From UHGV virus genome UHGV-1366919: a stretch of DNA of 64,000 nt; one strand, written 5' to 3'. Under the pieces are notes generated by a model. The model was not told the DNA's origin and did no database searches. It was given only the letters and a program-made list of their open reading frames with translations. Both the position numbers and the translations under genes were made by a program. Shown in pieces: positions 5,963-60,917 of this stretch (position 1 is its first letter; every line of letters begins with the position of its first letter). Source of the DNA: a virus.

Positions 5963-5995
5963 GATACTTTTATTATATTTCTTACCTTATTATTT

Positions 5996-6002
5996 GAAGG
6001 TG
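5996..6002 (-). promoter_or_regulatory. conserved upstream element (gene-sense aaCACCTTCAAATAATAAGG ... TATAAT) 34 nt before the ATG of 5570..5962
   Basis: One of about 17 instances of the plus-strand [AG]AAGGTG motif located 25-60 nt upstream of minus-strand gene starts. Confidence 0.4.
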
Positions 6003-6009
6003 TTAGAAC

Positions 6010-6285
6010 TTAAACCAAATAAAAGAAATGTTTCTTTTTGAAATTATACAAAATATACCTTTTTTGATCTTCATCATATTCAACTTCAGACTCTTCTTCT
6101 CGATAAAACATCTTAATATCATTGGACAAGCGAGTAACTAAGATGCCATATTCCGGCCGTTCTTTAATTTCAATCGAAACTTCAACGGGCTTAAGAAAAT
6201 CAAAATTAAGAGGAATACCACAATATTTTACTTTTTTCCCTTTTAGCTTTTTAGCAAACTTTCTAAAGTCTATTCTATTTTTCAT
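6010..6285 (-). CDS. hypothetical protein
   Basis: ORF. Confidence 0.4.
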   Translation of the reverse strand: MKNRIDFRKFAKKLKGKKVKYCGIPLNFDFLKPVEVSIEIKERPEYGILVTRLSNDIKMFYREEESEVEYDEDQKRYILYNFKKKHFFYLV

Positions 6286-18717: not shown

Positions 18718-18834
18718 CTAATCAAAACTAGTTATTTGATTTATTACTTTGCATCAAAACAATTTTAATTCAATTATCCGTCCTTCACAGGATTGATTTT
18801 TTTTTTTGAATATTTCATTCGAAAAATTAGTTTC

Positions 18835-18892
18835 GCTCTTGGCTACTTATGCTCATCGCCGCGTAAAGGCTTTTTCGATGATGAACTGGTTG
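18835..18892. repeat. about 55-nt conserved element, copy A (about 80% identical to 21737-21795)
   Basis: Plus-strand tacttatgctcatcgccgcgtaaaggctttttcgatgatgaactgg aligns with the copy at 21737-21795, attacttatgttcattaccacgtaaaggtttctccattaatgaactcgg. Confidence 0.6.
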
Positions 18893-19014
18893 CAGCGGGC
18901 GGACATGCTCCGCTTAAGAGATGCTTATGAGACATCTGAGGCTACTAATACCTCTTTACTTTCCTGCTGCGATTTTCTGAGCAGTTTAAAATCTTGCTCA
19001 GGATTCTGAATTAT

Positions 19015-19134
19015 TTACTTACCTTTCTGAACCTTAATTACAGGAGGCTGATTAACAGTTTGTTGCTGTTGCTGAGAGCAAGAAGCTGTCAAACAAATTA
19101 CAGAAGCGGTAAGAAGAATTGCAATGTTTTTCAT
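19015..19134 (-). CDS. small lipoprotein (39 aa: MKNIAILLTASVICLTASCSQQQQQTVNQPPVIKVQKGK)
   Basis: Hand-translated. Signal peptide with lipobox-like LTASC. AGGTG/CACCT motif about 35 nt upstream. Confidence 0.45.
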   Translation of the reverse strand: MKNIAILLTASVICLTASCSQQQQQTVNQPPVIKVQKGK

Positions 19135-19177
19135 GATTTTATAATATTTTTTATCTTATTTTTTGTAGGTGCTCAAA

Positions 19178-19432
19178 TCAAATATATGAGTTTTGATATT
19201 TAATTGAATTGCGGAATTTTTTATCAGGATATTCTTTAATAAATCCTTCAGCAATTTTATCATCCCATATAGGTCTTTGACTAAATTTAGCACGAATATT
19301 GGGTTGATCCTTGGCCTTATATTCCCGATACCATTTTATATTGTTTCGAGTTTTATAAATCCAAAATGCTTTTCTGCTGTCAAGTTTATAACAAAACTTG
19401 TCCGGTATATTTTTTCTATATGATCTGCTCAT
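19178..19432 (-). CDS. small basic protein (84 aa)
   Basis: ORF. Confidence 0.4.
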   Translation of the reverse strand: MSRSYRKNIPDKFCYKLDSRKAFWIYKTRNNIKWYREYKAKDQPNIRAKFSQRPIWDDKIAEGFIKEYPDKKFRNSIKYQNSYI

Positions 19433-19450
19433 AACTTTCTAGGTACAAAC

Positions 19451-20578
19451 CTAGAAAGCATTACGATAATTATTGTTCATATTAAAGATGTCTGCAATAT
19501 TATGCTCAATATCAGTTGCTTGAACGCACTCAAGCAAAATATTTTCGTCCTTTATTTTATATACTAAACGATCAATTCCATTTTCAATGAGATCATTCGG
19601 ACCAAATACGATATGTTTCCATTCATAGTCATCATTAGAACCTTTTAACCGTTTAGCAATTCGAAGCGGATTAGTAGTAAACAAATTAATCGGTTCAGGA
19701 CTAATATCGGTTTTAGTTATATATTCAAACTTATTGCCTGCCTGGGGAATAACTTTAATTCTATAATTGCAAGGTCTAAATTCAATGTTAATATCATTGA
19801 TTATCTTATCTAGAGTTGTTTCGTAAAGATTACATTCTTCAGTAAGAGCCTGGAGAACATCAAAACTAAAGTTAAGAATAGATTTTGAAGTTTTTATAAA
19901 TTGAGAAATATTAGTATCAATTTGTACTTTCAAATTATCTTTAAGATATTCTTGAATTACTTCGGAAGAAAGTGAATCAAATTTAAAATGATAAAAGATT
20001 CTGCCAGGTCGGGAAAGGAAAAATTGATTAATCTTATAAAGATTATTACAAGAAAAAAGATAAAGATTCTTATTTTCATTTATCCCGTCCAAAAGACCGA
20101 GCAATCCAAATTGGTTTTCTTTTCCTGAATCCATTTCGCAATCATCTGTATTTTCATAGCTGAATTTATCAAATTCATCAAAAATACAAACAACTTTTTC
20201 GTCAATCTTTTTAATAAAATCAGAAAACTTATTTAGGTTAATTTTCTGATTAACAAGGATAACAGGAATATTATCCTCAATAGCTCTTTCAATACAAAGC
20301 TTAATCAAAAGGCTTTTTCCAGTTCCTTTCAGTCCGGACAATAGCACGCCGAGATTTTTATCCCTAGATTCATAAGTCTTAAAAATCCTTTGAACCTTAT
20401 TATTCAAATCTCTATAAATCTTCCTATTGTTGAAAATAAAATTATGTTCTTTTAAGAACATTTGTCCCTGAGGACCTGCATTTATTGTATAAATTTTAGC
20501 CGGGAGATTCTTTAAAATAGTAATACAGTTTTCAGAAAGAACATCAACTGTATCATTGTTAATGATATAATTAGACAT
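19451..20578 (-). CDS. classical-clade AAA+ ATPase
   Basis: Walker A GLKGTGKS, Walker B VVCIFDEFD, second region of homology with SRPGRIFYHF (Arg finger). Last gene of a 3-gene operon with overlapping stops and starts. Confidence 0.65.
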   Translation of the reverse strand: MSNYIINNDTVDVLSENCITILKNLPAKIYTINAGPQGQMFLKEHNFIFNNRKIYRDLNNKVQRIFKTYESRDKNLGVLLSGLKGTGKSLLIKLCIERAIEDNIPVILVNQKINLNKFSDFIKKIDEKVVCIFDEFDKFSYENTDDCEMDSGKENQFGLLGLLDGINENKNLYLFSCNNLYKINQFFLSRPGRIFYHFKFDSLSSEVIQEYLKDNLKVQIDTNISQFIKTSKSILNFSFDVLQALTEECNLYETTLDKIINDINIEFRPCNYRIKVIPQAGNKFEYITKTDISPEPINLFTTNPLRIAKRLKGSNDDYEWKHIVFGPNDLIENGIDRLVYKIKDENILLECVQATDIEHNIADIFNMNNNYRNAF

Positions 20579-20996
20579 TATATTTTAGATAATAAGAATA
20601 ATAAAAAGATTTTTGGAATAAACAACCGCCTATTGCAGTTGAATGAGATACAAGCTCATAACCTTTTTTAATTAGAAAAGAAATAACTTCATTTAATATT
20701 TCCTCAAATATTTCTTTATCATGCTCTCTTTCATTTCGAAGAGTAAAGAATAAAAATTTAGGCCGTATAACATATTCCGGTAAAGAATAATCCTCAATAA
20801 TAAAATAACCGGTTTTAGGCAATTCTTTAGTATAGCGATCTATTTTCAGATCAATTTGATCAAGAATATATTCGAGACAATTAGACTTTTTAATTCTATA
20901 TTTCTCAATATCAAGAGCTACTTTAAATCGTTTCTTTTCTTCTTTAAGCCTTTGTTTAAGAAAAGTTTTATATTCATTTTTGTTAAACCAGCTCAT
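20571..20996 (-). CDS. hypothetical protein (141 aa), operon partner of the AAA+ ATPase
   Basis: 8-nt overlap with the downstream gene and 14-nt overlap with the upstream gene. Confidence 0.45.
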   Translation of the reverse strand: MSWFNKNEYKTFLKQRLKEEKKRFKVALDIEKYRIKKSNCLEYILDQIDLKIDRYTKELPKTGYFIIEDYSLPEYVIRPKFLFFTLRNEREHDKEIFEEILNEVISFLIKKGYELVSHSTAIGGCLFQKSFYYSYYLKYNV

Positions 20997-21300
20997 TGAT
21001 TGATGCTTCTTTATAAAAGTTAGAAAGGATAAGAGTTATAATGAAAGGTTCTCCTTTACTCAATTCAATGTCATATTCAATGCCATTATTATCTTCTTCC
21101 CAAATAATATGAAGCTCATCGTTAAACACAACTGTTTCAATATTTTTAATGAGCAGCATATTTTTTACCTTTTGAGTAAGGTCAAACATTGATCCGTCAA
21201 ATTCAATGATTTTTCCTCCCATAAGGGAATCTTTAATAATATCTTCATCCCCGTGAGATACATGAAGATAAGATGGAATTGAAACTGCAAAATTACTCAT
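20983..21300 (-). CDS. hypothetical protein (105 aa), first gene of the AAA+ operon
   Basis: ORF. AACACCTTTGAG...CATAAT element upstream. Confidence 0.45.
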   Translation of the reverse strand: MSNFAVSIPSYLHVSHGDEDIIKDSLMGGKIIEFDGSMFDLTQKVKNMLLIKNIETVVFNDELHIIWEEDNNGIEYDIELSKGEPFIITLILSNFYKEASINELV

Positions 21301-21330
21301 AAAAATATTATGAGATAAATCTTATAACTC

Positions 21331-21337
21331 AAAGGTG
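21331..21337 (-). promoter_or_regulatory. conserved element AACACCTTTGAG ... CATAAT 32 nt before the AAA+ operon
   Basis: Matches the 4891-4897 instance (AACACCTTTGAG). Confidence 0.4.
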
Positions 21338-21350
21338 TTTAAGAAATAAA

Positions 21351-21425
21351 TGGAAGAGTTGCTGGGGTACGATCCCAGAATAGGAGAGTCAAAGTCTCCG
21401 GTGTTGCCAATTACACTACAACTCT
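21351..21425 (-). tRNA. tRNA-Gln(TTG), CCA encoded
   Basis: Perfect 7-bp acceptor agagttg/caactct, D-stem gtgt/acac, anticodon stem ggaga/tctcc with loop ctttgac. T-loop atcgtac is non-canonical. Confidence 0.5.
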
Positions 21426-21431
21426 ATTTGT

Positions 21432-21506
21432 TGGAGGCTTCAATCGGTTATGCTCCGATGTTACCGGGTTACAAATCCGGGGTTTTACTGATTAAACTAT
21501 AAAGCC
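21432..21506 (-). tRNA. tRNA-Thr(TGT), CCA encoded
   Basis: Acceptor ggcttta/tgaagcc, D-stem gttt/aaac with 8-nt loop, anticodon loop tttgtaa, T-stem atcgg/ccgat. T-loop agcataa is non-canonical. 6 nt from tRNA-Gln. Confidence 0.5.
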
Positions 21507-21508
21507 TT

Positions 21509-21582
21509 TGGTACTTTGTATCGAAATCGAATCGATGACTTCTGAGTGGAAATCAGATGTTTTACCACTAAACTAACAAAGC
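21509..21582 (-). tRNA. tRNA-Gly(TCC), CCA encoded
   Basis: Acceptor gctttgt/acaaagt, D-stem gttt/aaac, perfect anticodon stem tctga/tcaga with loop tttccac, T-arm atcga-ttcgatt-tcgat. 2 nt from tRNA-Thr. Confidence 0.7.
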
Positions 21583-21700
21583 ATTAACAAGACACATTTT
21601 CTTTATACTCTACCAATTGAGCTAGCATCCTCTTCTCAAAGATGCCTAGGATTCGAACCCAGAACCGTTCATTTTTCATATGACTAAGATAATTGTTGTT
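21583..21700 (-). other. tRNA-like fragments: canonical D-arm (tagctcaattggtagagt) and T-arm (ctgggttcgaatcctag) in inverted order, joined by a gcatc/gatgc stem
   Basis: Could not be folded into a single cloverleaf by hand. May be a pseudo-tRNA, an unusual tRNA or an att-site remnant. Confidence 0.3.
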
Positions 21701-21736
21701 AATGTCTTTTTTATGAGAAGACTTAGAGATATTAGT

Positions 21737-21795
21737 TTCATCTTTCCTGATTACTTATGTTCATTACCACGTAAAGGTTTCTCCATTAATGAACT
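21737..21795. repeat. about 55-nt conserved element, copy B (partner of 18835-18892); overlaps the 3' acceptor of tRNA-Pro
   Basis: About 80% identity to copy A. In minus sense it forms the hairpin gttcatta...taatgaac. Confidence 0.6.
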
Positions 21796-21866
21796 CGGGT
21801 ACCAGAGGGTCGAACTCTGTTAATCATGCTCCCAAAGCATGCCCATAACCGTCCTGGCCATACCCG
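21795..21866 (-). tRNA. tRNA-Pro(TGG), CCA not encoded
   Basis: Acceptor cgggtat/gtacccg, anticodon stem catgc/gcatg with loop tttggga, T-arm cagag-ttcgacc-ctctg. The D-arm is short and irregular. Confidence 0.5.
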
Positions 21867-22185
21867 TTATACCGGTATTGTCGTCAACTTTCTCAGAAGT
21901 ACCGGACTCCTATAGCTTCAGCATACGATCAGCTAAACGATTATTTCTTAACCCATCGTTCTAACGGTAATCAGTTCCAGCTCGCTCTCTAACCGCTAAA
22001 CTGATAAGTCGCTAGTTAGGTAATTCTTTGTGACTAGCAAAGAAACACTATGTTCGATCTACATATTTACTCATCACTATCGAGTCAACGGACTAATAGG
22101 CTAAGAGTGGGATCTTCGTATTTTTAAAAATGTATTAATAATACGATCACTTTTAATAGTATGATCTCTATATACTTTTTCCTGC

Positions 22186-22212
22186 TTGAGTAAAATCTAA
22201 GATTTTACTCAA
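22186..22212. repeat. 12-bp perfect hairpin (ttgagtaaaatc taa gattttactcaa)
   Basis: Read directly; no adjacent T-tract. Confidence 0.6.
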
Positions 22213-22374
22213 ATAATATTCACTTGTTTGTGGATTTTTATTTACAATATATGTTCCTAATGGACAATTAGTAATAATATCTAATGATCCATTTTCTACT
22301 ACTCATAGATTATTATTATTTCGAATGAATTGAGACATTATGTTATTTTGTTTTTGTTTTTGTTTTTTAAAATT

Positions 22375-22452
22375 TGGTAAGCCTGGTCGGATTCGAACCG
22401 ACGATCTATCGATTATGAGTCGATTGCTTTAAAACCTCTAAGCTACAAGCCT
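22375..22452 (-). tRNA. tRNA-Met/Ile(CAT), CCA encoded
   Basis: Acceptor aggcttg/caggctt (two G-U pairs), D-stem gctt/aagc, anticodon stem atcga/tcgat with loop ctcataa, canonical T-arm gtcgg-ttcgaat-ccgac. Confidence 0.7.
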
Positions 22453-22989
22453 TTATAAATTATATTGTGGATAATGTAATTCTAAATGACAATTAGAACA
22501 TAATAAATCACATTTATCAGCTTCTATTTGTAAAATATTAATAGGTTTAGAACTAAATGCACTAGCACTTAAACTAAAACATTTTTTAGTATTTTCTCTA
22601 TGGTGAAAAGATAAAACAGCTAAATTTTTATTATAACCACAAATTTGACATTTTCCACCTTTTTGAGATATAAAAAATAATTTTCTATTTTTATATCTAA
22701 GTTTAAATGATTTATAATCTTTTTTAAAATTACGAGAAGTATTTTTAATTTTAGACCTACAAGAAATTGAACAATATTTTTGTTGTAAACCTGTTAATAA
22801 ATTATTACAAACAATACAATAACGTTTAATTTTATTATTTCCTTGAAATACTGTTTTTAAATTATATTCTTTTAATCTATTTTTAACTGTCATAGGTGAA
22901 CATTTTAATTCTTTTGCAATTTTTCGTGTACTTAATTGCTTATTAATTAAATGTTCTAATTGTTCCTTAGAAATATTTGACTTACCCAT
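22453..22989 (-). mobile_element. free-standing HNH homing endonuclease with N-terminal HTH; its stop abuts the tRNA-Met 5' end
   Basis: HTH STRKIAKELKCSPMTVKNRLKEY. HNH core CQICGY...LSFHHREN...CSNCHLELH. The cassette 22453-23660 is more AT-rich than its surroundings. Confidence 0.65.
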
Positions 22990-23349
22990 TTATTCAAATG
23001 GTATTTGACTTATATCATTTATTGACTCAATTTTATTAATCTCATTAATTATAATACAACAATTATACAAATTAATTATACCATTTTCAAAATCTTTCCA
23101 ATCATTTTCTGTTGGTTCATAGCCTTTTTCTACTTCACTCCAACTAATATAAAGGTTATTATCTTCAATCTCAAAATTAATTTCAAAAATAGGCCAAATA
23201 CTAATAAATTTATCTTTTAATTCTTTATAAGTTTCAAAATTAAAAATTGTCTGACCATCATATCTTTTTTGGAAAGAACGAATTTCGCCTTTTTCATAAT
23301 TATCTTCACTTACTTCAATAATAGTATTTGATAAATTAATTTGATACAT
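22990..23349 (-). CDS. hypothetical protein (119 aa) in the AT-rich cassette
   Basis: ORF abutting the HNH gene. Confidence 0.4.
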   Translation of the reverse strand: MYQINLSNTIIEVSEDNYEKGEIRSFQKRYDGQTIFNFETYKELKDKFISIWPIFEINFEIEDNNLYISWSEVEKGYEPTENDWKDFENGIINLYNCCIIINEINKIESINDISQIPFE

Positions 23350-25499: not shown

Positions 25500-26612
25500 T
25501 TAGATGTTCATTAATTTATTATACACCTTGAAACCAATAGGTGTTTTGCGATAAATCATCCACAGTAGAGTTTGATTCAAGCTAGGATAAGTTTTCAATA
25601 ACTGAACTACTTCATGGGCATCTTCATAAATATTGATTTCTTTTAACCTTTTTTGACATTCTTTATAAGGAAGAACTACGAATTGTTCAAATTTTTTACA
25701 AACCTCAATCATATTAGGTTTAATATATTCTGCGATCTCATAGTCAAATTGTTTTTCTACAAACTCATAAAACTGCTTTTGAACTTGTTCAGCTTCAAAA
25801 GTTTCCGGATTGAGATAACCATGTTCATACATCGCTTCAGCTACTTTGAGTATAGAACTTAAGGTAGATTTCATCCGATGCAAAGTACAATACCAATCTG
25901 ATTTTATCTTTTTAAGAAGCTGTCCATTATTAAAATAAACAACAACTCCTTCAGCCGAAGTCCAGGATTTAATCTTTTCATTTAAATCAATGTAAGATTT
26001 AATATCCGGATATTCATATTGCCTTGGCCGTTTAAATTTATATGTATGAGCAATCGAGTTTAATTCTTTCTGAGTGGCATAAGAGTAATCTTTATGATTA
26101 ACCTTTCCAATCAGGAATAAATCAGGATTATCATACTTGAGAACAATCTGATTCGTTGGGGTTACCCATTCAAAAATCAAAGAAAAATCTGCAGTTTCGT
26201 AAGATTTAAAATATAATTCAATCTTGTACTGTTCCAATAAAGGATTAAGTTCGGAAGCATTTTTCTGTTGATATGCAGAAATAGTACCTCTGGTTCGAAC
26301 AATAAGTTTTCCTTTATATTTTGAAACAATCAGACATGAACCATCTAACTTTTCGGTTAGAACAAAATCTTTATCATAGTATGGTGCAACTGGTTCAAAA
26401 GCTGGCTGTTCATTAAAATTCATGAACTTTCTAAATCCCAATGAAACTGGGAATCCATCAGAAACCCGCCAAATAGAAGAACGATAAATCTTATTTAAAT
26501 CAGTAAATTTGGCAGAAATCAAAGGCGTAATCAGAACACAAAGGTCTCCAGCAATTTCTACTTCTTTAAAAGAAAATTCTTCTTCGGATTCTTTAAACCA
26601 CTGATACTTCAT
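25500..26612 (-). CDS. RNA ligase, T4 Rnl1-like (tRNA sealing)
   Basis: Motif I LTEKLDGSC resembles Rnl1 KEDGSL. 370 aa. Lies in a cassette with a kinase and phosphoesterases. Confidence 0.55.
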   Translation of the reverse strand: MKYQWFKESEEEFSFKEVEIAGDLCVLITPLISAKFTDLNKIYRSSIWRVSDGFPVSLGFRKFMNFNEQPAFEPVAPYYDKDFVLTEKLDGSCLIVSKYKGKLIVRTRGTISAYQQKNASELNPLLEQYKIELYFKSYETADFSLIFEWVTPTNQIVLKYDNPDLFLIGKVNHKDYSYATQKELNSIAHTYKFKRPRQYEYPDIKSYIDLNEKIKSWTSAEGVVVYFNNGQLLKKIKSDWYCTLHRMKSTLSSILKVAEAMYEHGYLNPETFEAEQVQKQFYEFVEKQFDYEIAEYIKPNMIEVCKKFEQFVVLPYKECQKRLKEINIYEDAHEVVQLLKTYPSLNQTLLWMIYRKTPIGFKVYNKLMNI

Positions 26613-27333: not shown

Positions 27334-28434
27334 TCATTGACGTTCGGCTTTTAGGTTTTGGGGACTATATACTCCCAAATGGAGAATGTTAATAGCTGCA
27401 TTAATATCTGCATCCATCTCAGCTCCACAAGTCTTACAGTGATATACTTCACCTTGTCGACTTGACTTATTAACAGTATTACAAACGTGGCATCGTTGAG
27501 ATGTATAAGCAGGAGGAACTTTAATGAGTAAGAAACCTTCTTCTTCACTAAATCTACCTAACTTATTCATTACTTTAATGTAACTCCACCTTTGTAACTT
27601 GTTGTTAAACTTTTTGGAAAATTTTTTACCTCGTTTTACGTTCTTAAGATTCTCAACTATAATCTGCCCACAATCTTTATGCTCATTATAAAACTTTTTA
27701 ACGGTTCGGTTGATTGCTTGATCTCTTTCAATTAATGCACGTTTGAAAGCTTTAGACCGTTGTTTCTTACGAGAAATCTTTTCATAGATTCCTTCTAATT
27801 CTTTGCCGTAAACCTTTCCGTCACTACATGCGAGTAGTTTCTTGTAACCGCAATCGACACCAATCGGTCTACCATCATGCTTCGCTACTTCTTCTTTCTC
27901 CCAGTAAAGACATAACATTCCATTATCTCGAAGCATCATTGTTCGATTATTAAACTCGAATCCTTGATCTTTCAAACAGTTACAAGCATAATGAAACTTA
28001 ATAGGAATATTGAATGTAAGATAACGTGTTTTTGTTTTAAGATAAGGAGAAAAAATACGAATAAAATAATCAAACTCACCTTCCTCACATTTTTCAATAT
28101 CCCATAAATGGTAGTTAATATTAACTGAATGAGATTTGATTATAGGTTTAGTAAATGGTTTGTGACATTTTTTACCTTTATATTTTGCTAGTACCGAACG
28201 ATAAGTTTGTACTGCTTCACGATAACAATCAACTCTCCAGTTAGCATTTACTATATCATTAAGAATTGGTAACTCTTTACTCGAAAGATTAGTTTTAAGA
28301 GGCAGTTTCTTTTCGTAAATGAGGTCGATATATTTCTGTAGTAACCATTGATAATCAGATACTATCTTCTTATACAATACCTTTTTACCGGTATTGGCAA
28401 ACTTAATTGTATGTGAAGAAGTACGTAATATCAT
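27334..28434 (-). mobile_element. tnpB: TnpB-like RuvC/zinc-finger nuclease gene (IS200/IS605-type accessory, OMEGA family)
   Basis: C-terminal CHVCNTVNKSSRQGEVYHCKTCGAEMDADINAAINIL (zinc finger plus RuvC-III). Imperfect hairpin caatgaaatctaatgaaattcattg (7-bp stem) at the 3' flank. Confidence 0.65.
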
Positions 28435-28565: not shown

Positions 28566-29312
28566 TTAAAGCATAGAATCTTCTCGTCTGGGACAATATT
28601 GCTCATAATATGTCATTGAAAGTTCATTAAGACAAATACATTTACAATTTTTAAAATCAAAACTTTCATCTACATGATAATGTCCAAAGAACCAGAATTT
28701 TGGTTGGTAAATATCAAAGATCTTATTAATTATTAGCTGTTCTTCTTGAAGGTCATTACGCAAGTCAGCATCCTGCAAATACCAATAATCGAGGCGATTA
28801 TTAGAACACTTAGGAGGTAAGGGACCGCAATGGCTAAGAATACCATGAAGTCCTTTATTTTTAATAATATCTTTTTCAAGTTCATTATATTTGGGAAAAC
28901 TAATATTTTCATCAGCCCAGTAAGATCTTTCTATATCTCTAAAACATCTATCAATAGATGTCCCTCCTCCTATACACATGAAAAGATCATCATTTAATAG
29001 AAGCAGTTGATGATCTTTCAAATGAATAATATTCTCATATTCTTCATCAATTAAATCATCTTTCCAATGAGAAGGGTTGTCATGATTTCCTCGAAGCAAA
29101 TAAGCTTTACAATTAAGCTTTTTTAATTCATCATTAAGCCAGCCATAGTCAAAAGCATAATTATTATCATTAAAACCTACTCCAATATCTCCAAGAAGAA
29201 TCAAATGGGCATCAGCGATATTAAGATCTTTTATCTTTTCAACCAGCTGAAACTTTTTACCATGAATATCTCCAATGAGATAAATGTCACCTTCAATCTC
29301 AAGCATATTCAA
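28566..29312 (-). CDS. lambda-phosphatase-like (PPP family) metallophosphoesterase, candidate 2',3' phosphatase of the tRNA healing cassette
   Basis: GDIHG ... GDIGV ... LRGNHDN motifs. Confidence 0.65.
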   Translation of the reverse strand: MNMLEIEGDIYLIGDIHGKKFQLVEKIKDLNIADAHLILLGDIGVGFNDNNYAFDYGWLNDELKKLNCKAYLLRGNHDNPSHWKDDLIDEEYENIIHLKDHQLLLLNDDLFMCIGGGTSIDRCFRDIERSYWADENISFPKYNELEKDIIKNKGLHGILSHCGPLPPKCSNNRLDYWYLQDADLRNDLQEEQLIINKIFDIYQPKFWFFGHYHVDESFDFKNCKCICLNELSMTYYEQYCPRREDSML

Positions 29313-30505: not shown

Positions 30506-31958
30506 GGCTCTGTCCTACCACAGTGTTGATTTTTAAGGAATCTTTCATGCTGTAAGACTTAATGTGTTGATGTTACCATCAAGACAATGGGTGAAGCCCC
30601 ACCCTCTACACCTTGGTCGGAGACCGACATCGGGTGCTTCTTTTCTATATCGATTTTAATTGGATTAAACATTGATTTGTGAGGTGAGAATGTTTTGCCG
30701 AGACCTCTACGCAGTATGTTAGCGGCACCATTGATGTCGGCGTTTAACATGCATCCAACAGAGCTTACAAACAACCCACGTTTCTTTCTCTTACCCATAT
30801 ATTCATCATAGTGACAAATATCCTCGTCGTCAAGGAATGAGCATTTGGAGGTGTGAGACTCATTGTGAGTTTCCACATTGATACCGGCTTCACTTGCTTT
30901 GTAAGACAACATCCAAATGAGTTGAGAATGTGGAATGCTCACAAAGTTCTGATTGTTTCGTTTACCAATGTTTACTTCCTGCTTCCATCCATCATTATGA
31001 CCGATAAAGCAGTTTCCGATTTTGTTTTCTACCATCAAATCAACCACTGAACGACTAGCCTTGTGCATATAATCTTTTGTTTTGTTATTGCGCTTTCTAG
31101 TAAGTCTCCTGAGTTTCTTTGATGTATTCATATCTCTCTCAGCCAACTTAGATACAATTTCAGCGTAAGTCTTGTTATAATATTGGTTGATGCTCTTTAA
31201 TGGTCTGCCATTAACAAGGTGGGATATAGACCCCTCGTTTGAAGTTACAGCCATTAAGTTATCAATACCAATATCTATCCCTACTGCTTTGTTGTAGTCT
31301 AAGTCAACCGGAGAAATCTTTGTTTTGTAGAAGATTTGTATCTCTATACATCCTTGCTTTGGCACAAGACGAAGCTCTTGCAAGGAGGTGAGCTTCGTTT
31401 TAATTGAAAGCTTAAAGTCCTTGCGAATGTTTATCGTTCCGTCTTTCTGGATTTTCGCGTCATTATAAGAGAAGGCAACGGAAAATAACTTATCGCCATT
31501 TGCTTCTTTCTTATACCTGGGCATCCTTGGTTTCCCAGTGAATTTCTGTGGATTCTTCTTGTATGAGTTAAGAGACCTGAACCAAGTAGAGAATGATTCG
31601 GCACACTTCTTCACAGTTTGTGCTGCTTCGTTATCCTTTAACAACGATCTAAAATCTTTGTCGTTTAACTTCCTCATTCTGGTGATTAGGTCAAACACAG
31701 AGATAAATTTCTCTTTCCTGATTATGTCTGTGTATTCAGGAATGTTCTCGTGTTTGCCACTAAACGCTTGGCGGAGAATGTATAACGTTCTATTGTAAAG
31801 AGATGTATTCAGAGAGCATTCTTGCACAGCCCAACCATAGAAGGATGTCCCTTCTTTTATCTGGTGCGTTTCAACTCTGATTGCCTCTTCTTGCATTCGC
31901 TGTTGTATATATTATACCATAGGTTTATCAGAAATCAACACTGTGGTAGGACAGAGCC
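30506..31958 (-). mobile_element. tnpB: TnpB-encoding element bounded by perfect 27-bp terminal inverted repeats
   Basis: ggctctgtcctaccacagtgttgattt at 30506-30532 is the exact reverse complement of 31932-31958. ORF 30559..31896 (445 aa) ends ...CMLNADINGAANILRRGL (RuvC-III) with a zinc finger CSFLDDEDICHYDEYMG. Confidence 0.7.
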
Positions 31959-38665: not shown

Positions 38666-39784
38666 TTATATTTGTAAGTGCTTAGAAATTAAATCTTTAA
38701 TTTGTTGATTGTTCTTTTTCCAATCATTTTCCCAAACTTCAATTAATTTGATACCATTTTCTTTACAAGCTTTTCGTTTATTCTTGTGATAACCTGGTTC
38801 TTTCTCTTCGTGAAATTGATGCCAATATTCACCATTATATTCAAAAGCTAATTTAAGTTCGGGAAGATAAATGTCCAATTCTTTTCCGCCAATAAATTTT
38901 CGAGTATTTTCTAAAATCTTGCCAGAATAAAGAGATTTAATATATTGGCAAAGCTCTTTTTCACCCTTAGAACGTTGTATCGCAATGGCACAATTAGGGC
39001 AACCTCTTCCGCTTAAATGAGCATAAGGAGCTTGTTTAAAAATATAATTACATTTATTACATTTAATTATAATTTTCTTATGAGAATGATTATAAGCAGA
39101 TAACGAATAATCATACCTATCTTTATCATGTACTTTTTCAGCTTTTTTAATAAAAGCTTGTAAAGTAGATATACGATTTAAATTTCGACATTTAATGCAT
39201 CCAACACCTTTAAGATGCTGTTTAGGTGTTTGTTTAAAAATATGGCCGCACTTATTACATTTAATAGTAACTTTTATAAGATAACCCTTATAAAGGGTTG
39301 AAGAATAATCAAATCGATTTTTTCCATGAATTTCTTCTGCCTTTTTAATAAATTCATCTATTGATAAATGCTGACGTTCCTTTCCACATTCTGGACAACC
39401 TGCACCGTTTAAATGATTTCCAGCTTTTTGCTCAAATATACTATCATGATAAAGACATTTGATTTTAACATTAGTATCATTATTAATATAGTTGACAAAA
39501 GAATAATCATAAATTCCTTTGCCATGAACAGATTCAGCTTTTTGTATAAATTCTTGAAGAGTTAATCTCGATTTTTCTGCATTTTTTGTTACTGCACATT
39601 TTGGACAGCCATGTCCATACCAATGCATATATGCAGCTTGTTCAAAGGTATGACCACATTTATTACATTTTATTATAAGCTTGGCTTTAGAACCCTGGTA
39701 AACTGATAGAGAATAGTCATACCTATCAGGACCATGCTTTTTTATGGCTTTTTCAATAAACTTTTCAGTTGTAAACTTTACCAT
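38666..39784 (-). mobile_element. homing-endonuclease-like gene: tandem zinc-ribbon repeats + C-terminal Vsr/DUF559-like PD-(D/E)XK nuclease (paralog 1 of 3)
   Basis: Five repeats of HG.xYDYS..Y.......I.C..HG.F.Q.P..HL.G.GCP.C. C-terminus GEKELCQYIKSLY...ELDIYLPELKLAFEYNGEYWH. Confidence 0.55.
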
Positions 39785-44376: not shown

Positions 44377-45981
44377 TCACTTTTCAGATTGTTCATCAAC
44401 CAAAAATGTTTCTGTTGTTAGAATCAAACCTGCCGATGCAGCGGCGTTTTCAATTGCGCAACGACATACACTAAATGGATCAATAATTCCCGCTTCTAAC
44501 ATGTCTACTAACTTTTGCGTCTTAATATCAAACCCAATACTGCCTTTAGCTTTTGCGACCTTTTCGATGATAACATCCGGCCGTTCAACTCCGGCATTCT
44601 CAAGAAGAGTCTTAAGAGGAATGTCAAGAACCTTTCGCATCAGGTTAATACCAGCATTAAAAGATTCATCCCCTGTTTCAAACTTAATAGACTTATTCTC
44701 TTTAATCTTAGCAAGAACAGATCCTCCCCCTGGAATAACTCCGGATCGTAAAGCTGCTTGACAGGCACATACCGCATCATCTACCCGGTCCTTAATTTCA
44801 TTTAATTCAGATTCAGAATTACCTCCGATATTAAGAACACATACTCCTTGGGCAAGCTTGGCAATTCGCTTATTAAGCACATCTTCTTCCCATGTGCCGG
44901 GACTGCAATTATCTCGTTCCTCCTTAAGCAAATCAATATGTTCTTTAAGCCTTTGAGGATTTCCTCCGCCTTTTAAGAAAGTTGTATATCGTTTATCACA
45001 AACAATCTTTTCACAGGTGGCAAAATCTTCCTCTCTAATAGAATTAAAATCACGTGAAAGAAGTTCAGTAAAATATGTACCTCCTAAAGTAATTTCAAGA
45101 TCTTCCATTTCCCTCTTCATGCCGTCTCCATATCCTGGACACTTAATGGCACAAATGTTAATAATGCCTTTAATCTTATTAATGACAAGAGTTTGAAGAA
45201 CTTCGGATTCAATATCCGGAGCGATAATAAACAAAGGCCTTCCGCGAAGTTCTTTAGTATTAAAGACTTTCTGAAGAATAGGCATAATTTGCTGATTATT
45301 TGTCAATTTAATTCCAGATAAAAGAATTAAGGGATTTTCAAGAATACATTCTTGTTTAGTCGTATTATTGACAAAATAAGAACTCATCCAGCCTCGAGGA
45401 ACTCGTAAACCTGCAATAAACTGAGAAGAAGATTCATTGCTCCTGCTGTCATTAATAGTAATGGAACCATCCAAACCTACTTTTTCAACAGCTTCAGAAA
45501 CAAGATGTGCAATTTCTTTATCCCAGTTGGTAGAAACTAAAGCAATTTGGTGAATCTGTTCTGGAGAACATTCCTGCTTAATATTTTCTTTAATATAGTT
45601 GGCAATTGTCTTTGCCGCTGAAATAACTCCGCGTTGAATTGAAATCGGATTATAACCTGTTTCAATCAGCTTCATGCCTTCAGATGCAATAGCCTCAGTG
45701 AGGATTGCGCTGGTACTGGTCCCATCACCAGCCTGGTGCGCTGATTGCTCGGATGCTTGACGAATAATATCTGCACCCATTTTTTCAAGTACATCAGGCG
45801 GATTTACATGGCGAGCTACTGTAACGCCGTCTTTTGTAATATATGTCGCATTACCCATTCGATATATTACATTTCTACCGCCAGGCCCGAGCGTCGAAGA
45901 AACTGCATTAGCAAGTTTCTTTACACCATTAAGCAGTTTCTTCCTGCCTTCATTTCCCATATAAATGTTTTGTTGAATCAT
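44377..45981 (-). CDS. groEL: chaperonin GroEL (Hsp60)
   Basis: LGPGGRNV, ITKDGVTVAR, AGDGTSTSAIL and the overall length (534 aa) are diagnostic. The C-terminal GGM repeat is absent. Confidence 0.9.
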   Translation of the reverse strand: MIQQNIYMGNEGRKKLLNGVKKLANAVSSTLGPGGRNVIYRMGNATYITKDGVTVARHVNPPDVLEKMGADIIRQASEQSAHQAGDGTSTSAILTEAIASEGMKLIETGYNPISIQRGVISAAKTIANYIKENIKQECSPEQIHQIALVSTNWDKEIAHLVSEAVEKVGLDGSITINDSRSNESSSQFIAGLRVPRGWMSSYFVNNTTKQECILENPLILLSGIKLTNNQQIMPILQKVFNTKELRGRPLFIIAPDIESEVLQTLVINKIKGIINICAIKCPGYGDGMKREMEDLEITLGGTYFTELLSRDFNSIREEDFATCEKIVCDKRYTTFLKGGGNPQRLKEHIDLLKEERDNCSPGTWEEDVLNKRIAKLAQGVCVLNIGGNSESELNEIKDRVDDAVCACQAALRSGVIPGGGSVLAKIKENKSIKFETGDESFNAGINLMRKVLDIPLKTLLENAGVERPDVIIEKVAKAKGSIGFDIKTQKLVDMLEAGIIDPFSVCRCAIENAAASAGLILTTETFLVDEQSEK

Positions 45982-47069
45982 GATTTACAATTATTATAGC
46001 ATGTTTCTTTGATAAACTTTTTTAATTTTTCCTTATTCTTTCGCCACTGAGTATCTAAAATTTCTATTAATTTTATACCTTTTTTCTCACAATCTTTTTT
46101 CTTTTGAACATGATAGCCTGGATATTTTTCTTCCTTTAACTTATGATGGTAATCACCGTTGTATTCAAAGGCTAGATTTAATTCAGGAAGATAAACATCA
46201 AGTTCTTTTTTTCCAATAATATCTCTTGGGTTTTCTTGAACCTCGCCTGGATAAATTGATTTAATATATTGACAAAGTTCTATTTCACCTTTAGATCTTT
46301 TTGATGCCGCTAAGCATTTAGGGCAACCGCTTCCGCGTAGATGCGTATTGGGCAACTGTAAAAATGGGCCATGTTTTTTACAAGTTATAATAATTTTTGT
46401 TTTTGCATTTTTATAAGCTACCAAAGAATAATCATACTTGTCTCCGTGAGTAGCTCTAGCTTTTTCTATAAATGCTTCAATAGTTCTCTTATTATTTCCG
46501 GCACAAAATGGGCAGCCGGAGCCTGAAAAATGCTTATCAGGGCGTTGTTCAAAAACTCCATGTATGGGACATATAATTTTTACTTTTGTTCTTTTATTTT
46601 TATAAATTACTAAAGAATAATCATATTTGGTTCCATGAACTTCAATAAATCTTTTTCTAATCTCTTCCTCAGTTAAAAACTGATTTTTAATTGCACATTT
46701 TTTACATCCTTTTCCTATTAAATGGCTTGATGGATCTTGCTTAAGAGTACAACCACATTTATTACATTTTATGATTACCTCGGTTGTTGAATTTATATAA
46801 TCAACTAAAGAATAATCATATCGGCCTTTCCCATGAATTTCTTCAGCTTTTTCTATAAATTCTTCTGTAGTCCTGTTAAATCCTTTACATTTAGGACAAC
46901 CATGGCCCATTAAATGAATGTTGGGAATTTGCTCAAAGTAGCCATGTATGGGACAAAATATTTTAATTAATGTTTTTGTGTTAAAATATACAACTTCAGA
47001 ATAACCATACTTATTGCCATGTATTTCAATAGCTTTTTTAATAAACTCTTTAGTTGTTAATCTTTTCAC
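45978..47069 (-). mobile_element. homing-endonuclease-like gene, paralog 3 (zinc-ribbon repeats + Vsr-like nuclease)
   Basis: Same repeat architecture. C-terminus GEIELCQYIKSIYPGEVQENPRDIIGKKELDVYLPELNLAFEYNGDYHH. 4-nt overlap with groEL. Confidence 0.55.
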
Positions 47070-54466: not shown

Positions 54467-54790
54467 TTAAACTATCTCCTTAAAGTCAAAAGTCTCATCA
54501 TCCTCATTGATAAATGAAACAAGATGGTAAGTTTCATCAGAAAATCCGTCTGAAACTTTTACTTTAATTTCCCACCCTTCCCCGAACAATCCTCCATAAG
54601 TACCCCAGAAAATTTGAGAAGCACAAAATTTAGCAGCATCCGCCATATTTTGGATATTGTTAGCTTTAATATCATATTTGTTAACAATCAAATAACCATG
54701 TTTCTTAACTTTTCCGTCATCCCAAAGTTCTTTAGCAATGCAAACATAATTTGCATCCTTAAGAAGTGACATATTAATCTTTTTACTCAT
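54467..54790 (-). CDS. hypothetical protein (107 aa), overlaps the upstream NTase gene by 8 nt
   Basis: ORF. Confidence 0.4.
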   Translation of the reverse strand: MSKKINMSLLKDANYVCIAKELWDDGKVKKHGYLIVNKYDIKANNIQNMADAAKFCASQIFWGTYGGLFGEGWEIKVKVSDGFSDETYHLVSFINEDDETFDFKEIV

Positions 54791-55829
54791 AAAAATTTAA
54801 AATATAATTCTTAAAAAATTCCTTATCAGGTTTTTCAGGTAATTTTGACTTATTAAACAATTCTTTTAATTCTAAAGATTTTTCATTTGCCAACTTCATT
54901 AGATAATCATATTCAAAATCGCCATTTCTAATCTTTAAAAGAAATTGTCTTAAAATAGGATTACATTTAACCGTTAATGTTCCATCTTTTAAAATCTCTC
55001 TGCAAAGACTCATAAGACGGAAAAGATGCATCATATTCTTTGTATCATAAAAGGTTTTATCAGACGTCTTTTCTACATTTGTTGCATATCTTTTTTCATT
55101 CCTTTTAGCAACCCAATCCCAGTATTCTTTATATTCTTTACAATATTTCTGATAAGCCGGAATATTAATAATCACATAGGCTGCGGTATTTGCATTTTTT
55201 GGAACCGATGTAATATTAATGTTCATGTCTAAAATAGGTCCGGCTTTACAAGGATGATTATAAAGTACATAAACATTTTCAGCATGATTCATTTTACAAA
55301 GAGATAAATTAGTCTCTTTAATACCACAGCATTCCAACCAGTCTCGATAAGGAATAGAATGTTGATAGCACAACACCCAGCTAAAATCTTTTAACGTTTT
55401 TCTTTCTTTAGGAAAAGGATTAGCTGACTTTTTATTAACGTTTTTGGCCTTTAAAATTTGAGATTCAGCATAAGCTCCAAAAGTATAAAAACATTTCTTG
55501 GAAAGAACTTTTTCAATTAGGGGATCAAATCGTTTATCCCTAATTTTAACATGTTCAGGATCAGTAGTAAACAAAACTTCAAGAGCCGAAGGAGTATTCT
55601 TTCTTAGTTGTTCAAGGAAGAATCCAATCTCGGTATAGATAGTATCATTATTATTCTCCTGGATTACCTTTTCATATTCACCAACTAATATATCTTTAAC
55701 AGGATGAGCAAAAACACCTCTAATATCAACATCCGAATCTTTAGTATTCAACCCATAAGAAATACTTCCCGCAATAACGCTCAATAATACTTCTTTACCC
55801 TTCAGAGGTCCTTCTCCACTTAAACACAT
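54783..55829 (-). CDS. Pol-beta superfamily nucleotidyltransferase (minimal NTase motif GS-x9-DxD); possibly RNA-repair-associated (RlaP-like)
   Basis: AGSISYGLNTKDSDVDIRGV matches the G[SG]...D.D nucleotidyltransferase fold signature. Confidence 0.5.
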   Translation of the reverse strand: MCLSGEGPLKGKEVLLSVIAGSISYGLNTKDSDVDIRGVFAHPVKDILVGEYEKVIQENNNDTIYTEIGFFLEQLRKNTPSALEVLFTTDPEHVKIRDKRFDPLIEKVLSKKCFYTFGAYAESQILKAKNVNKKSANPFPKERKTLKDFSWVLCYQHSIPYRDWLECCGIKETNLSLCKMNHAENVYVLYNHPCKAGPILDMNINITSVPKNANTAAYVIINIPAYQKYCKEYKEYWDWVAKRNEKRYATNVEKTSDKTFYDTKNMMHLFRLMSLCREILKDGTLTVKCNPILRQFLLKIRNGDFEYDYLMKLANEKSLELKELFNKSKLPEKPDKEFFKNYILNFYE

Positions 55830-60275: not shown

Positions 60276-60917
60276 ATGAATAGCTATAGTTACGATGAGG
60301 AGAAAGATAAATGGGGGGCAGAATTAGTTGCAACTAAGGACCGTATAGCTAGACGAATTTATTCAACAAAAGATTATTACTATTGTTGCTGGAAAATGGC
60401 AAGGCATGGATTATTAATTCTTGATTACCGGGGGTTAATTATAGATGTTAACCCGTATTTTTGTGAAAAAATTGGATATTCTCGAGAAGAATTATTGGGA
60501 AAAAATATTAATGATTTTTGTGTTAAAGCTGAAGATCTTCATGCTTCTGATTCTATTAATATTTTAACTTTACTTCAATCGATTAATCAACAAAGTACAA
60601 ATCAATGCGAATTAAAAACTAAAGAAACTAAATTATTTCGTGTAAGATGGGTCGCAACCAGAATTCCAGCATCATTATCTAGTCCATTCTCACATAGTTT
60701 AGTATGTGTATACTTTTTAAGTGAAACTAATTATTCTAAAATTATTGATGAGATTAATAAAATTAAAAAGAAAGAATCGAATATCCTTTGGAAGATACTC
60801 GATTCTCTTTGGGCAAAATGCTTAATTTTTTTAATTATTATTCTTACAGCTATTGGTGGAAGTTTACCAGATATTGTCTCAAAGATAATATCTTTATTTG
60901 CAAATTCTCCACTTTAA
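60276..60917 (+). CDS. PAS-domain protein with C-terminal TM helix
   Basis: LLILDYRGLIIDVNPYFCEKIGYSREELLGKNINDF is PAS-like. The C-terminus is hydrophobic. Confidence 0.5.
   Translation: MNSYSYDEEKDKWGAELVATKDRIARRIYSTKDYYYCCWKMARHGLLILDYRGLIIDVNPYFCEKIGYSREELLGKNINDFCVKAEDLHASDSINILTLLQSINQQSTNQCELKTKETKLFRVRWVATRIPASLSSPFSHSLVCVYFLSETNYSKIIDEINKIKKKESNILWKILDSLWAKCLIFLIIILTAIGGSLPDIVSKIISLFANSPL

Follow-up and report, generated by a model that had tools for sequence, protein, structure and literature searches.

Precursors of transfer RNA (tRNA) that lack an encoded CCA are cut after the discriminator base by the protein endonuclease RNase Z, and CCA addition is then needed. In Caudoviricetes of gut Bacteroidota or Bacillota, tRNAs are accompanied by theta ribozymes, minimal ribozymes of the hepatitis delta virus (HDV) type; those located at tRNA 3' ends are reported to self-cleave in vitro, to be inactivated when the catalytic C is replaced by U, and to occur in phages in which the DRB0094 ligase family is enriched 140-fold (Kienbeck et al., 2024, PMC10879173). 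Among other HDV-like ribozymes, that of CPEB3 is active with a P1.1 helix composed of one G-C pair and one U-U pair, and a role has been described for the L3 pair (the U20.G25 reverse wobble) (PMC4836649). We analysed a stretch of 64,000 nucleotides (nt) of the virus genome UHGV-1366919, hereafter the window, which carries two related elements (copies A and B) at the edges of its tRNA regions. With a probability of about 85%, these are minus-strand, HDV-like self-cleaving ribozymes of the tRNA-region transcripts; they would represent a previously undescribed structural variant of the HDV-like ribozymes that process phage tRNA 3' ends, with the theta ribozymes as the nearest known relatives.

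The existence of a two-copy repeat, which had been noticed in the original prediction, was confirmed. The shared core (TACTTATG...ATGAACT on the plus strand) is identical in 36 of 45 aligned columns (80%) and the full units in 52 of 72; the local alignment of A and B scores 30, compared with 20 for the best one in 20 shuffled 63-kb windows and 14 for the best one elsewhere in the real window. Gap-free repeat finding in the window did not report this pair because of indels. The length of approximately 55 nt first ascribed to the element had to be revised to 67 nt (A) and 71 nt (B): the earlier intervals omitted 13-15 nt at the 3' end, containing the 3' strand of P2 in both copies and, in A, also J4/2 with the catalytic C, and took in 6 nt (A) or 1 nt (B) of the upstream RNA. 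Function in the minus sense, as then proposed, is supported, and the element is read on this strand because all the tRNAs and nearly all the genes of the window are encoded there.

In both copies the segments follow the order P1, J1/2, P2, P3, L3, P3', P1', P1.1, P4, J4/2 and P2' (P, helix; L, loop; J, joining segment), with all the helices of a nested double pseudoknot present (Table 1). Their differences are compensatory in P1, P2, P3 and P4: position 7 of P1 is U-A in B and C-G in A, P3 contains A-U in B and G-C in A, and P2 is swapped from UGGAGA/UCUCUA (B) to CGAAAAA/UUUUUCG (A). The stem described earlier and its compensatory change are therefore real, but what was taken for a simple hairpin is only helix P1 of the HDV-like fold. 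Further features shared with HDV-like ribozymes are the position of the predicted cleavage site at the 5' edge of P1, the catalytic C in J4/2 and the U...G pair of L3. A covariance model (R1) built from 13 relatives places the copies at 18820-18886 and 21725-21794, both near the top score of the family (approximately 74 bits, with a maximum of 80). With filters off, R1 detected no third copy in the window; the next matches (60690-60737 and others) lack P3 and L3 and were discarded as chance. Megablast of positions 17000-23000 against GenBank phages gave no match.

A search for more copies and for covariation, proposed earlier as a check, yielded 82 distinct further copies and strong covariation. 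The exact-pattern scan of IMG/VR returned 54 stretches and a relaxed pattern, with the L3 and P1.1 positions left free, 108; the covariance model produced 97 matches (82 distinct, from 83 sources), including copies missed by the patterns. Relatives are almost all viral, on IMG/VR contigs of 6-282 kb, and a search of 185,579 genomes of bacteria and archaea gave just 7 stretches, from bins or isolates that bear the names Parabacteroides, Phocaeicola, Mediterraneibacter, Faecalibacillus, Cloacimonadota and Leptonemataceae. On the alignment of the 82 distinct sequences the pseudoknotted structure leaves 90.9% of the cells paired vs 56.8% in shuffles, and its covariation score (0.838 vs 0.218 shuffled) was reached by 0 of 500 shuffles; in a control in which the partners were slid, 36-52% were paired. 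Pairing amounts to 98.7% in P1, 100% in P3 and 97.9% in P4, and to 63-84% in P2 across the family, register slips notwithstanding. The P1.1 pair is formed in all 82 sequences (U-A in 65, C-G in 15, G-C in 2). As P2 and P1.1 lay outside the search model, they represent independent tests of the fold, and in a separate parse a perfect P2 of at least 6 base pairs (bp) was present in 53 of 65 sequences, compared with a mean of 6.2 and a maximum of 14 when partners were shuffled between sequences. In 74 unique pattern sequences, for which P1 pairing had been required in the selection, P2 was fully paired in 73, and the P3 pairs were G-C (36), A-U (35), G-U (2) and U-A (1). Altogether, all five helices covary, including P2 and P1.1.

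The nucleotides expected in the active core are likewise conserved. A control that followed the theta paper, with A, G or T in place of the catalytic C of the search pattern, retrieved 1 locus vs approximately 96 matches with C. The U.U of P1.1 was kept in 110 of 111 pattern hits in which both positions were free. L3 reads U-NN-AC-G-Y in both copies and in every member retrieved by pattern; one covariance-model match (L093:856) has G first.

Copy B lies exactly at the 3' end of a tRNA. It had been thought to overlap tRNA-Pro; in fact it adjoins it, since the tRNA ends at 21795 and the element starts at 21794, so that the discriminator A21795 is directly 5' of G21794 (G+1) at a distance of 0 nt. 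Across the family, 20 of the 97 hits adjoin the 3' end of a tRNA called by ARAGORN (0 or ±1 nt, or after CCA), with 13 isotypes represented, and a few additional adjoining tRNAs are recognisable by eye; most other members come after a GC-rich hairpin without a U-tract. The presence of a ribozyme is linked to the lack of CCA: among tRNAs followed by a ribozyme, 11 are without CCA and 5 with it, vs 12 without and 128 with it among the other tRNAs of the same loci (Fisher p = 1.7e-7). The same trend is seen in the window, where tRNA-Met, Gly, Thr, Gln and Leu have an encoded CCA and no ribozyme, and tRNA-Pro and tRNA-Glu have no CCA and a ribozyme at +1, which for tRNA-Glu is a third HDV-like ribozyme of another subtype. 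An irregular "tRNA-Asn" without CCA and without ribozyme is the exception. Detected by ARAGORN and Rfam, this tRNA-Asn(GUU) is 93 nt long, with a tandem GTTAGTT-type insert just 3' of the anticodon loop, and could be interrupted, degenerate or provided with an odd intron. In another locus an RNA upstream of a family member (L098, approximately 5966-6060, minus strand) resembles by eye a tRNA with a long variable arm and UCA in the anticodon loop; it was not called by ARAGORN and, if the reading by eye holds, would be of the UGA-reading suppressor type.

Copy A follows an 84-nt tRNA-like cloverleaf that ends in AACCA directly 5' of G18886, so that its predicted cleavage site is 0 nt from a CCA-ended RNA that the tRNA models do not accept. 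The cloverleaf has a minimum free energy of -28.9 kcal/mol (z -3.8) and consists of a bulged 7-bp acceptor-like stem, an 8-nt linker, a D-like arm, an anticodon-like arm (GAUGU-CUCAUAA-GCAUC) and a T-like arm; its D and T loops are non-canonical. The viral scan retrieved ordinary phage tRNA-Met genes with an identical anticodon arm, and only the metazoan-mitochondrial mode of ARAGORN called the cloverleaf as a tRNA. We read it as a diverged relative of tRNA-Met. The viral scan detected no homologues of the cloverleaf beyond the 98%-identical phage L091, which carries both ribozyme copies in the same arrangement and has stronger P1 and P4 pairs in its copy A element. The plus-strand ORF (open reading frame) 18806..19009 is antisense to the cloverleaf and ribozyme A and is therefore not a gene, in line with the non-coding nature suspected before. 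Downstream of a small minus-strand ORF with a lipoprotein-like signal (MKNIAILLTASVICLTASC...) come, in this order, a hairpin, the cloverleaf and ribozyme A; cleavage would thus give a short mRNA a tRNA-like, CCA-ended 3' end.

Table 1. Coordinates of the ribozymes, adjoining RNAs and other features of the window (E, expectation value).
Feature	Coordinates	Strand	Remarks
Ribozyme copy B	21724..21794	minus, read 5' to 3'	71 nt; covariance model R1 73.6 bits, E 1.8e-11
Copy B P1	21794-21788 with 21765-21759	minus	GUUCAUU/AAUGAAC
Copy B J1/2	21787-21786	minus	AA
Copy B P2	21785-21780 with 21729-21724	minus	UGGAGA(A)/UCUCUA
Copy B P3	21778-21776 with 21768-21766	minus	ACC/GGU
Copy B L3	21775-21769	minus	UUUACGU
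Copy B P1.1	U21773-A21758 plus U21774.U21757	minus	segment AU after P1'
Copy B P4 region	21756-21736	minus	AAGUA-AUCAGGAAAGAU-GAAA; AUC/GAU stem between AAGUA and GAAA
Copy B J4/2	21735-21730	minus	CUAA(UA); putative catalytic C 21735
Ribozyme copy A	18820..18886	minus	67 nt; covariance model R1 74.3 bits, E 1.3e-11
Copy A P1	18886-18880 with 18857-18851	minus	GUUCAUC/GAUGAGC
Copy A J1/2		minus	AU
Copy A P2	18877-18871 with 18826-18820	minus	CGAAAAA/UUUUUCG
Copy A P3	18870-18868 with 18860-18858	minus	GCC/GGC
Copy A L3	18867-18861	minus	UUUACGC
Copy A P1.1	U18865-A18850 plus U18866.U18849	minus	segment AU after P1'
Copy A P4 region	18848-18831	minus	AAGUA-GCCAAGAGC-GAAA
Copy A J4/2	18830-18827	minus	CUAA; putative catalytic C 18830
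tRNA-Pro(UGG)	21795..21866	minus	ARAGORN; without encoded CCA
tRNA-like cloverleaf	18887..18970	minus	84 nt, ends in AACCA
Third HDV-like ribozyme, other subtype	17633..17707	minus	Rfam HDV-F-prausnitzii 33.2 bits (gathering 44), full-length alignment; R1 18.3 bits; P1 GGAAACA/UGUUUCC; L3 UCUACGU; P1.1 CU/AG (two Watson-Crick pairs); 7-bp P4 CAAAGAU/AUCUUUG
tRNA-Glu(UUC)	17708..17780	minus	without encoded CCA; third ribozyme at +1
tRNA-Asn(GUU), irregular	18563-18655	minus	93 nt
Small ORF, lipoprotein-like signal	19019-19135	minus	
Hairpin after small ORF	18974-18998		
Near-perfect hairpin	18659-18727		approximately 20 bp
Permuted tRNA-like module	21586-21686	minus	between ribozyme B and tRNA-Gly
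Non-coding stretch	21867-22120	minus	between tRNA-Met and tRNA-Pro
AT-rich 35-nt repeat	18158-18192, 19137-19171, 22857-22891		71-83% identical
DRB0094-like RNA ligase	9708..10718	minus	OB-fold and ligase domain; Pfam PF09414, PF21189; TIGR02306 97.5 bits, below cut-off
DUF2828+DUF7788 protein	11149-12630	minus	
Calcineurin-type metallophosphoesterase	28569..29312	minus	Pfam PF00149, E 1.8e-11
Mobile-element ORFs	15172-16200, 27337-28434, 30562-31896, 38669-39784, 45981-47069	all minus	

Compared with theta ribozymes, as represented by the published rows (PMC10879173), the family shares the helix order and the layout P1, J1/2, P2, RCC, U NN ACGY, GGY, P1', NN, P4, CUAA, P2'. Both A and B have the P3 strands RCC/GGY, the L3 sequence U-NN-ACGY and a J4/2 of CUAA led by the catalytic C; the predicted cleavage site of copy B, at 0 nt from tRNA-Pro, lies well inside the ±5 nt from a tRNA 3' end used for theta ribozymes. 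As in the theta report, the associated tRNAs are mostly CCA-less, copies away from tRNAs exist and the phage carries a DRB0094-type RNA ligase. Differences concern the core and the context. P1.1 is UU/AU here, one covarying pair and an invariant U.U, whereas in the published theta rows it is a 2-bp helix (CC/GG in nearly all, TC/GA and TC/GG in others). The P4 region, of 18 nt (A), 21 nt (B) or longer, forms a covarying stem flanked by AAGUA...GAAA, in contrast to the 4-8 nt L4 without P4 stem of those rows. In addition, +1 is C in about a quarter of the members, and about a quarter adjoin a called tRNA vs approximately 58% reported for theta. No family sequence occurs among the published theta data rows compared (PMC10879173), and a literature search for this variant retrieved the theta paper only.

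The family is not recognised by Rfam either. At gathering thresholds the window region yielded tRNAs only, and 132 kb of 14 related loci gave tRNAs, transfer-messenger RNA (tmRNA), Pistol, RAGATH-1 hammerhead and RAGATH-34, never this family. HDV-F-prausnitzii (RF02682) is the best Rfam family for all three ribozymes of the window; it aligns P1, P3 and L3 of A and B correctly and leaves their P4 and J4/2 half unaligned, and the third ribozyme (33 bits) is a much closer relative of it. Resemblance to CPEB3 is found in the UUCACGU/GU subtype of the family (15 distinct sequences), whose P1.1 arrangement is identical. The L3 of CPEB3 reads UUCACGU too. Unlike the family, CPEB3 is a single conserved intronic ribozyme of mammals, without sarcin-ricin-like P4 flanks or a link to tRNAs, and most family members have U-A rather than C-G in P1.1.

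The flanks of P4 recall another known module. The canonical sarcin-ricin (bulged-G, loop E-like) signature is AGUA/GAA (PMC1865062), and in the family AGUA stands 5' and GAA 3' of the P4 stem, arranged around a closing hairpin as in the ribosomal sarcin-ricin loop. Among hits independent of the patterns, AGUA/GAA accompanies most cores of the U.U type and 0 of 4 cores with two Watson-Crick pairs in P1.1. Since the P4 flank positions were partly fixed by the search patterns, the sarcin-ricin-like character suggested by these motifs is a lead and not a structural result.

Loci of the family's phages also contain other HDV-like subtypes: canonical theta (CC/GG, short L4), F. prausnitzii-like, and a U.U type with minimal L4 and without the sarcin-ricin-like motif (L069). 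Such mixtures were observed at L091, L010, L059, L062, L069, L073 and L083, and single phages therefore carry mixed ribozyme repertoires. A Pistol ribozyme, a RAGATH-1 hammerhead, RAGATH-34 and phage tmRNAs were detected in related loci (L008 1907-1980, 2086-2156 and 4513-5072; L003 1594-1667; L009 4878-5454 and 6732-6831); the Pistol ribozyme lies approximately 105 nt upstream of an HDV-like ribozyme, and a short RNA is thus flanked by two ribozymes.

The most likely function of A and B is cleavage in cis that produces RNA 3' ends, a proposal based on the established mechanism of HDV ribozymes and on the finding that theta ribozymes placed in this context are active in vitro. The nascent RNA would fold into a nested double pseudoknot, with P1/P2 as outer and P3/P1.1 as inner helices, and P4. 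The first cytosine of J4/2 (C21735 in B, C18830 in A), together with Mg2+, would then cleave the phosphodiester bond directly 5' of G+1, freeing the upstream RNA with an exact 3' end bearing a 2',3'-cyclic phosphate: tRNA-Pro at its discriminator base in the case of B, and the tRNA-Met-derived cloverleaf after its CCA in the case of A. The ribozyme would remain as the 5' end of the downstream RNA. On CCA-less tRNA-Pro, and on tRNA-Glu with its own HDV-like ribozyme, phage or host enzymes would then have to heal the end and add CCA. This process resembles that of RNase Z in substrate class and cut position and differs from it in that an RNA would act in cis rather than a protein in trans, with a 2',3'-cyclic phosphate instead of a 3'-OH as the predicted product, so that an extra end-healing step would be needed. 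The RNA processing signal listed among the initially suggested roles comes nearest to this proposal, except that the element would be the putative processing enzyme itself; no pointer to a stand-alone small RNA was found. As the module also follows GC-rich hairpins across the family, it would act as a general cis-acting maker of RNA 3' ends and not as a tRNA trimmer only.

The phage to which the window belongs is large and has rIIA/rIIB, GroEL, NAMPT and DNA ligase. Genes of the RNA-repair type are also encoded in the window: an Rnl1-like ligase, a DRB0094-like ligase, an RlaP-type nucleotidyltransferase and a metallophosphoesterase. The RNA ligases lie at 9708-10718 and 25503-26612 and the RlaP-type gene at 54786-55829. 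The DRB0094-like ligase may be tied to the ribozymes through the enrichment reported for theta-carrying phages, and the metallophosphoesterase is a candidate for the removal of the 2',3'-cyclic phosphate that ribozyme cleavage would leave.

Several observations weigh against the ribozyme reading. In both copies G+1 pairs with C in P1 instead of forming the canonical G.U wobble (the closing pair in the family is G.U in 40, C-G in 23, G-C in 10 and A-U in 6, and +1 is C instead of G in 23 distinct members; G-C is also present in published theta rows, PMC10879173), and P1.1 is reduced to one Watson-Crick pair and U.U, which makes for a weaker core in other HDV-like ribozymes. P4 of copy A is weak (2 bp and a C.A mismatch) and its P1 has U.G where L091 has U-A. 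No Rfam 15 model reaches threshold, the best, RF02682, giving 21.6 bits for A and 18.8 for B (gathering 44), and neither the Rfam tRNA model nor ARAGORN in bacterial mode, even with relaxed settings, accepted the cloverleaf as a tRNA. The covariance alignment was fitted to P1, P3 and P4 and therefore leans towards these helices, and the conservation of AAGUA, GAAA and CUAA was partly fixed by the search patterns. Nested-only thermodynamic folding was no better than in shuffles (z -0.66 and -0.05), a null result that the third ribozyme shares and that was taken as uninformative because the element is an AU-rich pseudoknot.

Much of this would also be expected if the HDV-like fold were non-catalytic, that is, a decayed relic or a protein-binding RNA (for instance, via the sarcin-ricin-like P4 module) with 3' ends made by host RNases: the reduced P1.1, the G1-C closure of P1, the weakened P4 of copy A, the low Rfam scores and C at +1 all point in that direction, and AGUA/GAA is a typical module for protein or tertiary contacts. 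Yet a structural RNA would have no reason to keep the catalytic C at approximately 96:1, and the exact registration of +1 with tRNA 3' ends is what a ribozyme cleaving at its 5' edge needs. CPEB3 is active with the same type of P1.1 (G-C plus U.U; PMC4836649), and both copies score close to the family maximum, which makes the loss of catalysis improbable. Highly unlikely, in turn, is a simple minus-strand hairpin signal (acting as terminator, as a site for RNase III or RNase E, or as small RNA, with the two copies as markers of tRNA cluster ends): nested folding does predict the P1 hairpin in both copies, but the scan for terminators gave no site at either copy, the stem lacks a U-run after it, and a hairpin would leave unexplained both the conserved L3 and J4/2 and the covariation of P2, P3 and P1.1, which extends beyond the hairpin. 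Least plausible of all is the attachment-like or recombination site entertained in the original prediction, for although the two direct repeats are separated by 2,908 bp and enclose genes located between the tRNA regions, which might form a 2.9-kb mobile cassette (an AAA ATPase gene and small ORFs, 18.9-21.7 kb) and the window contains several transposases and homing endonucleases, the copies are just 72-80% identical with differences concentrated in compensatory changes within helices, the element is single and in many contexts in most other phages, and in the near-identical L091 the arrangement is unchanged and shows no trace of excision.

The window presents other RNA and repeat features. 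The permuted tRNA-like module contains a T arm, a closed acceptor-like hairpin (GCAUCUU/AGGAUGC) and a D arm, all within a long stem, and scores 26 bits against the Rfam model YrlA (Y RNA-like; gathering 69). The DUF2828+DUF7788 protein, for which a PDB sequence search found no match, is a candidate Ro60-like partner of this YrlA-like RNA. A near-perfect hairpin (TTATCTGATTTGAGGAAAT...) between ribozyme A and the odd tRNA-Asn matched only microRNA precursor models, by shape. One of the three copies of the AT-rich repeat (19137-19171) immediately precedes, on the minus strand, the small ORF starting at 19135, a position that suggests a phage promoter or leader motif. The non-coding stretch between tRNA-Met and tRNA-Pro is GC-richer (41-46%), has no Rfam match and a fold z of -1.25. 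Mobile-element genes are many for a phage and comprise an IS1595-family transposase, two phrog_506 ORFs (PHROG transposase) and two HNH/homing endonucleases.

With regard to annotation, the spurious plus-strand ORF can be removed and both "edges" of the tRNA regions are explained. Because this subfamily escapes both the published theta motif and Rfam, the ribozyme content of phage genomes is under-counted. The family extends the connection, noticed only recently, of small ribozymes with the maturation of phage tRNAs, and the strong association with the lack of CCA suggests a pathway open to direct test, in which cleavage would be followed by healing of the cyclic phosphate and by CCA addition. 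For studies of ribozyme structure and regulation, a natural HDV-like core that combines a P1.1 of a single pair with a sarcin-ricin-like P4 module would offer a useful comparison. It is conceivable, though rather doubtful at present, that the family constitutes a distinct uncatalogued HDV-like subclass (CPEB3-type P1.1 and sarcin-ricin-like AGUA/GAA at the base of P4) employed by large phages as a general cis-acting maker of 3' ends on CCA-less tRNAs, tRNA-like RNAs and hairpin-ended transcripts, partly replacing terminators and RNase Z, with the module possibly docking a phage or host protein that switches cleavage. If such docking were true, tRNA release would be a regulated step of infection. 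The location of most members after hairpins rather than tRNAs points to ribozyme-made RNA 3' ends as a general strategy of phages.

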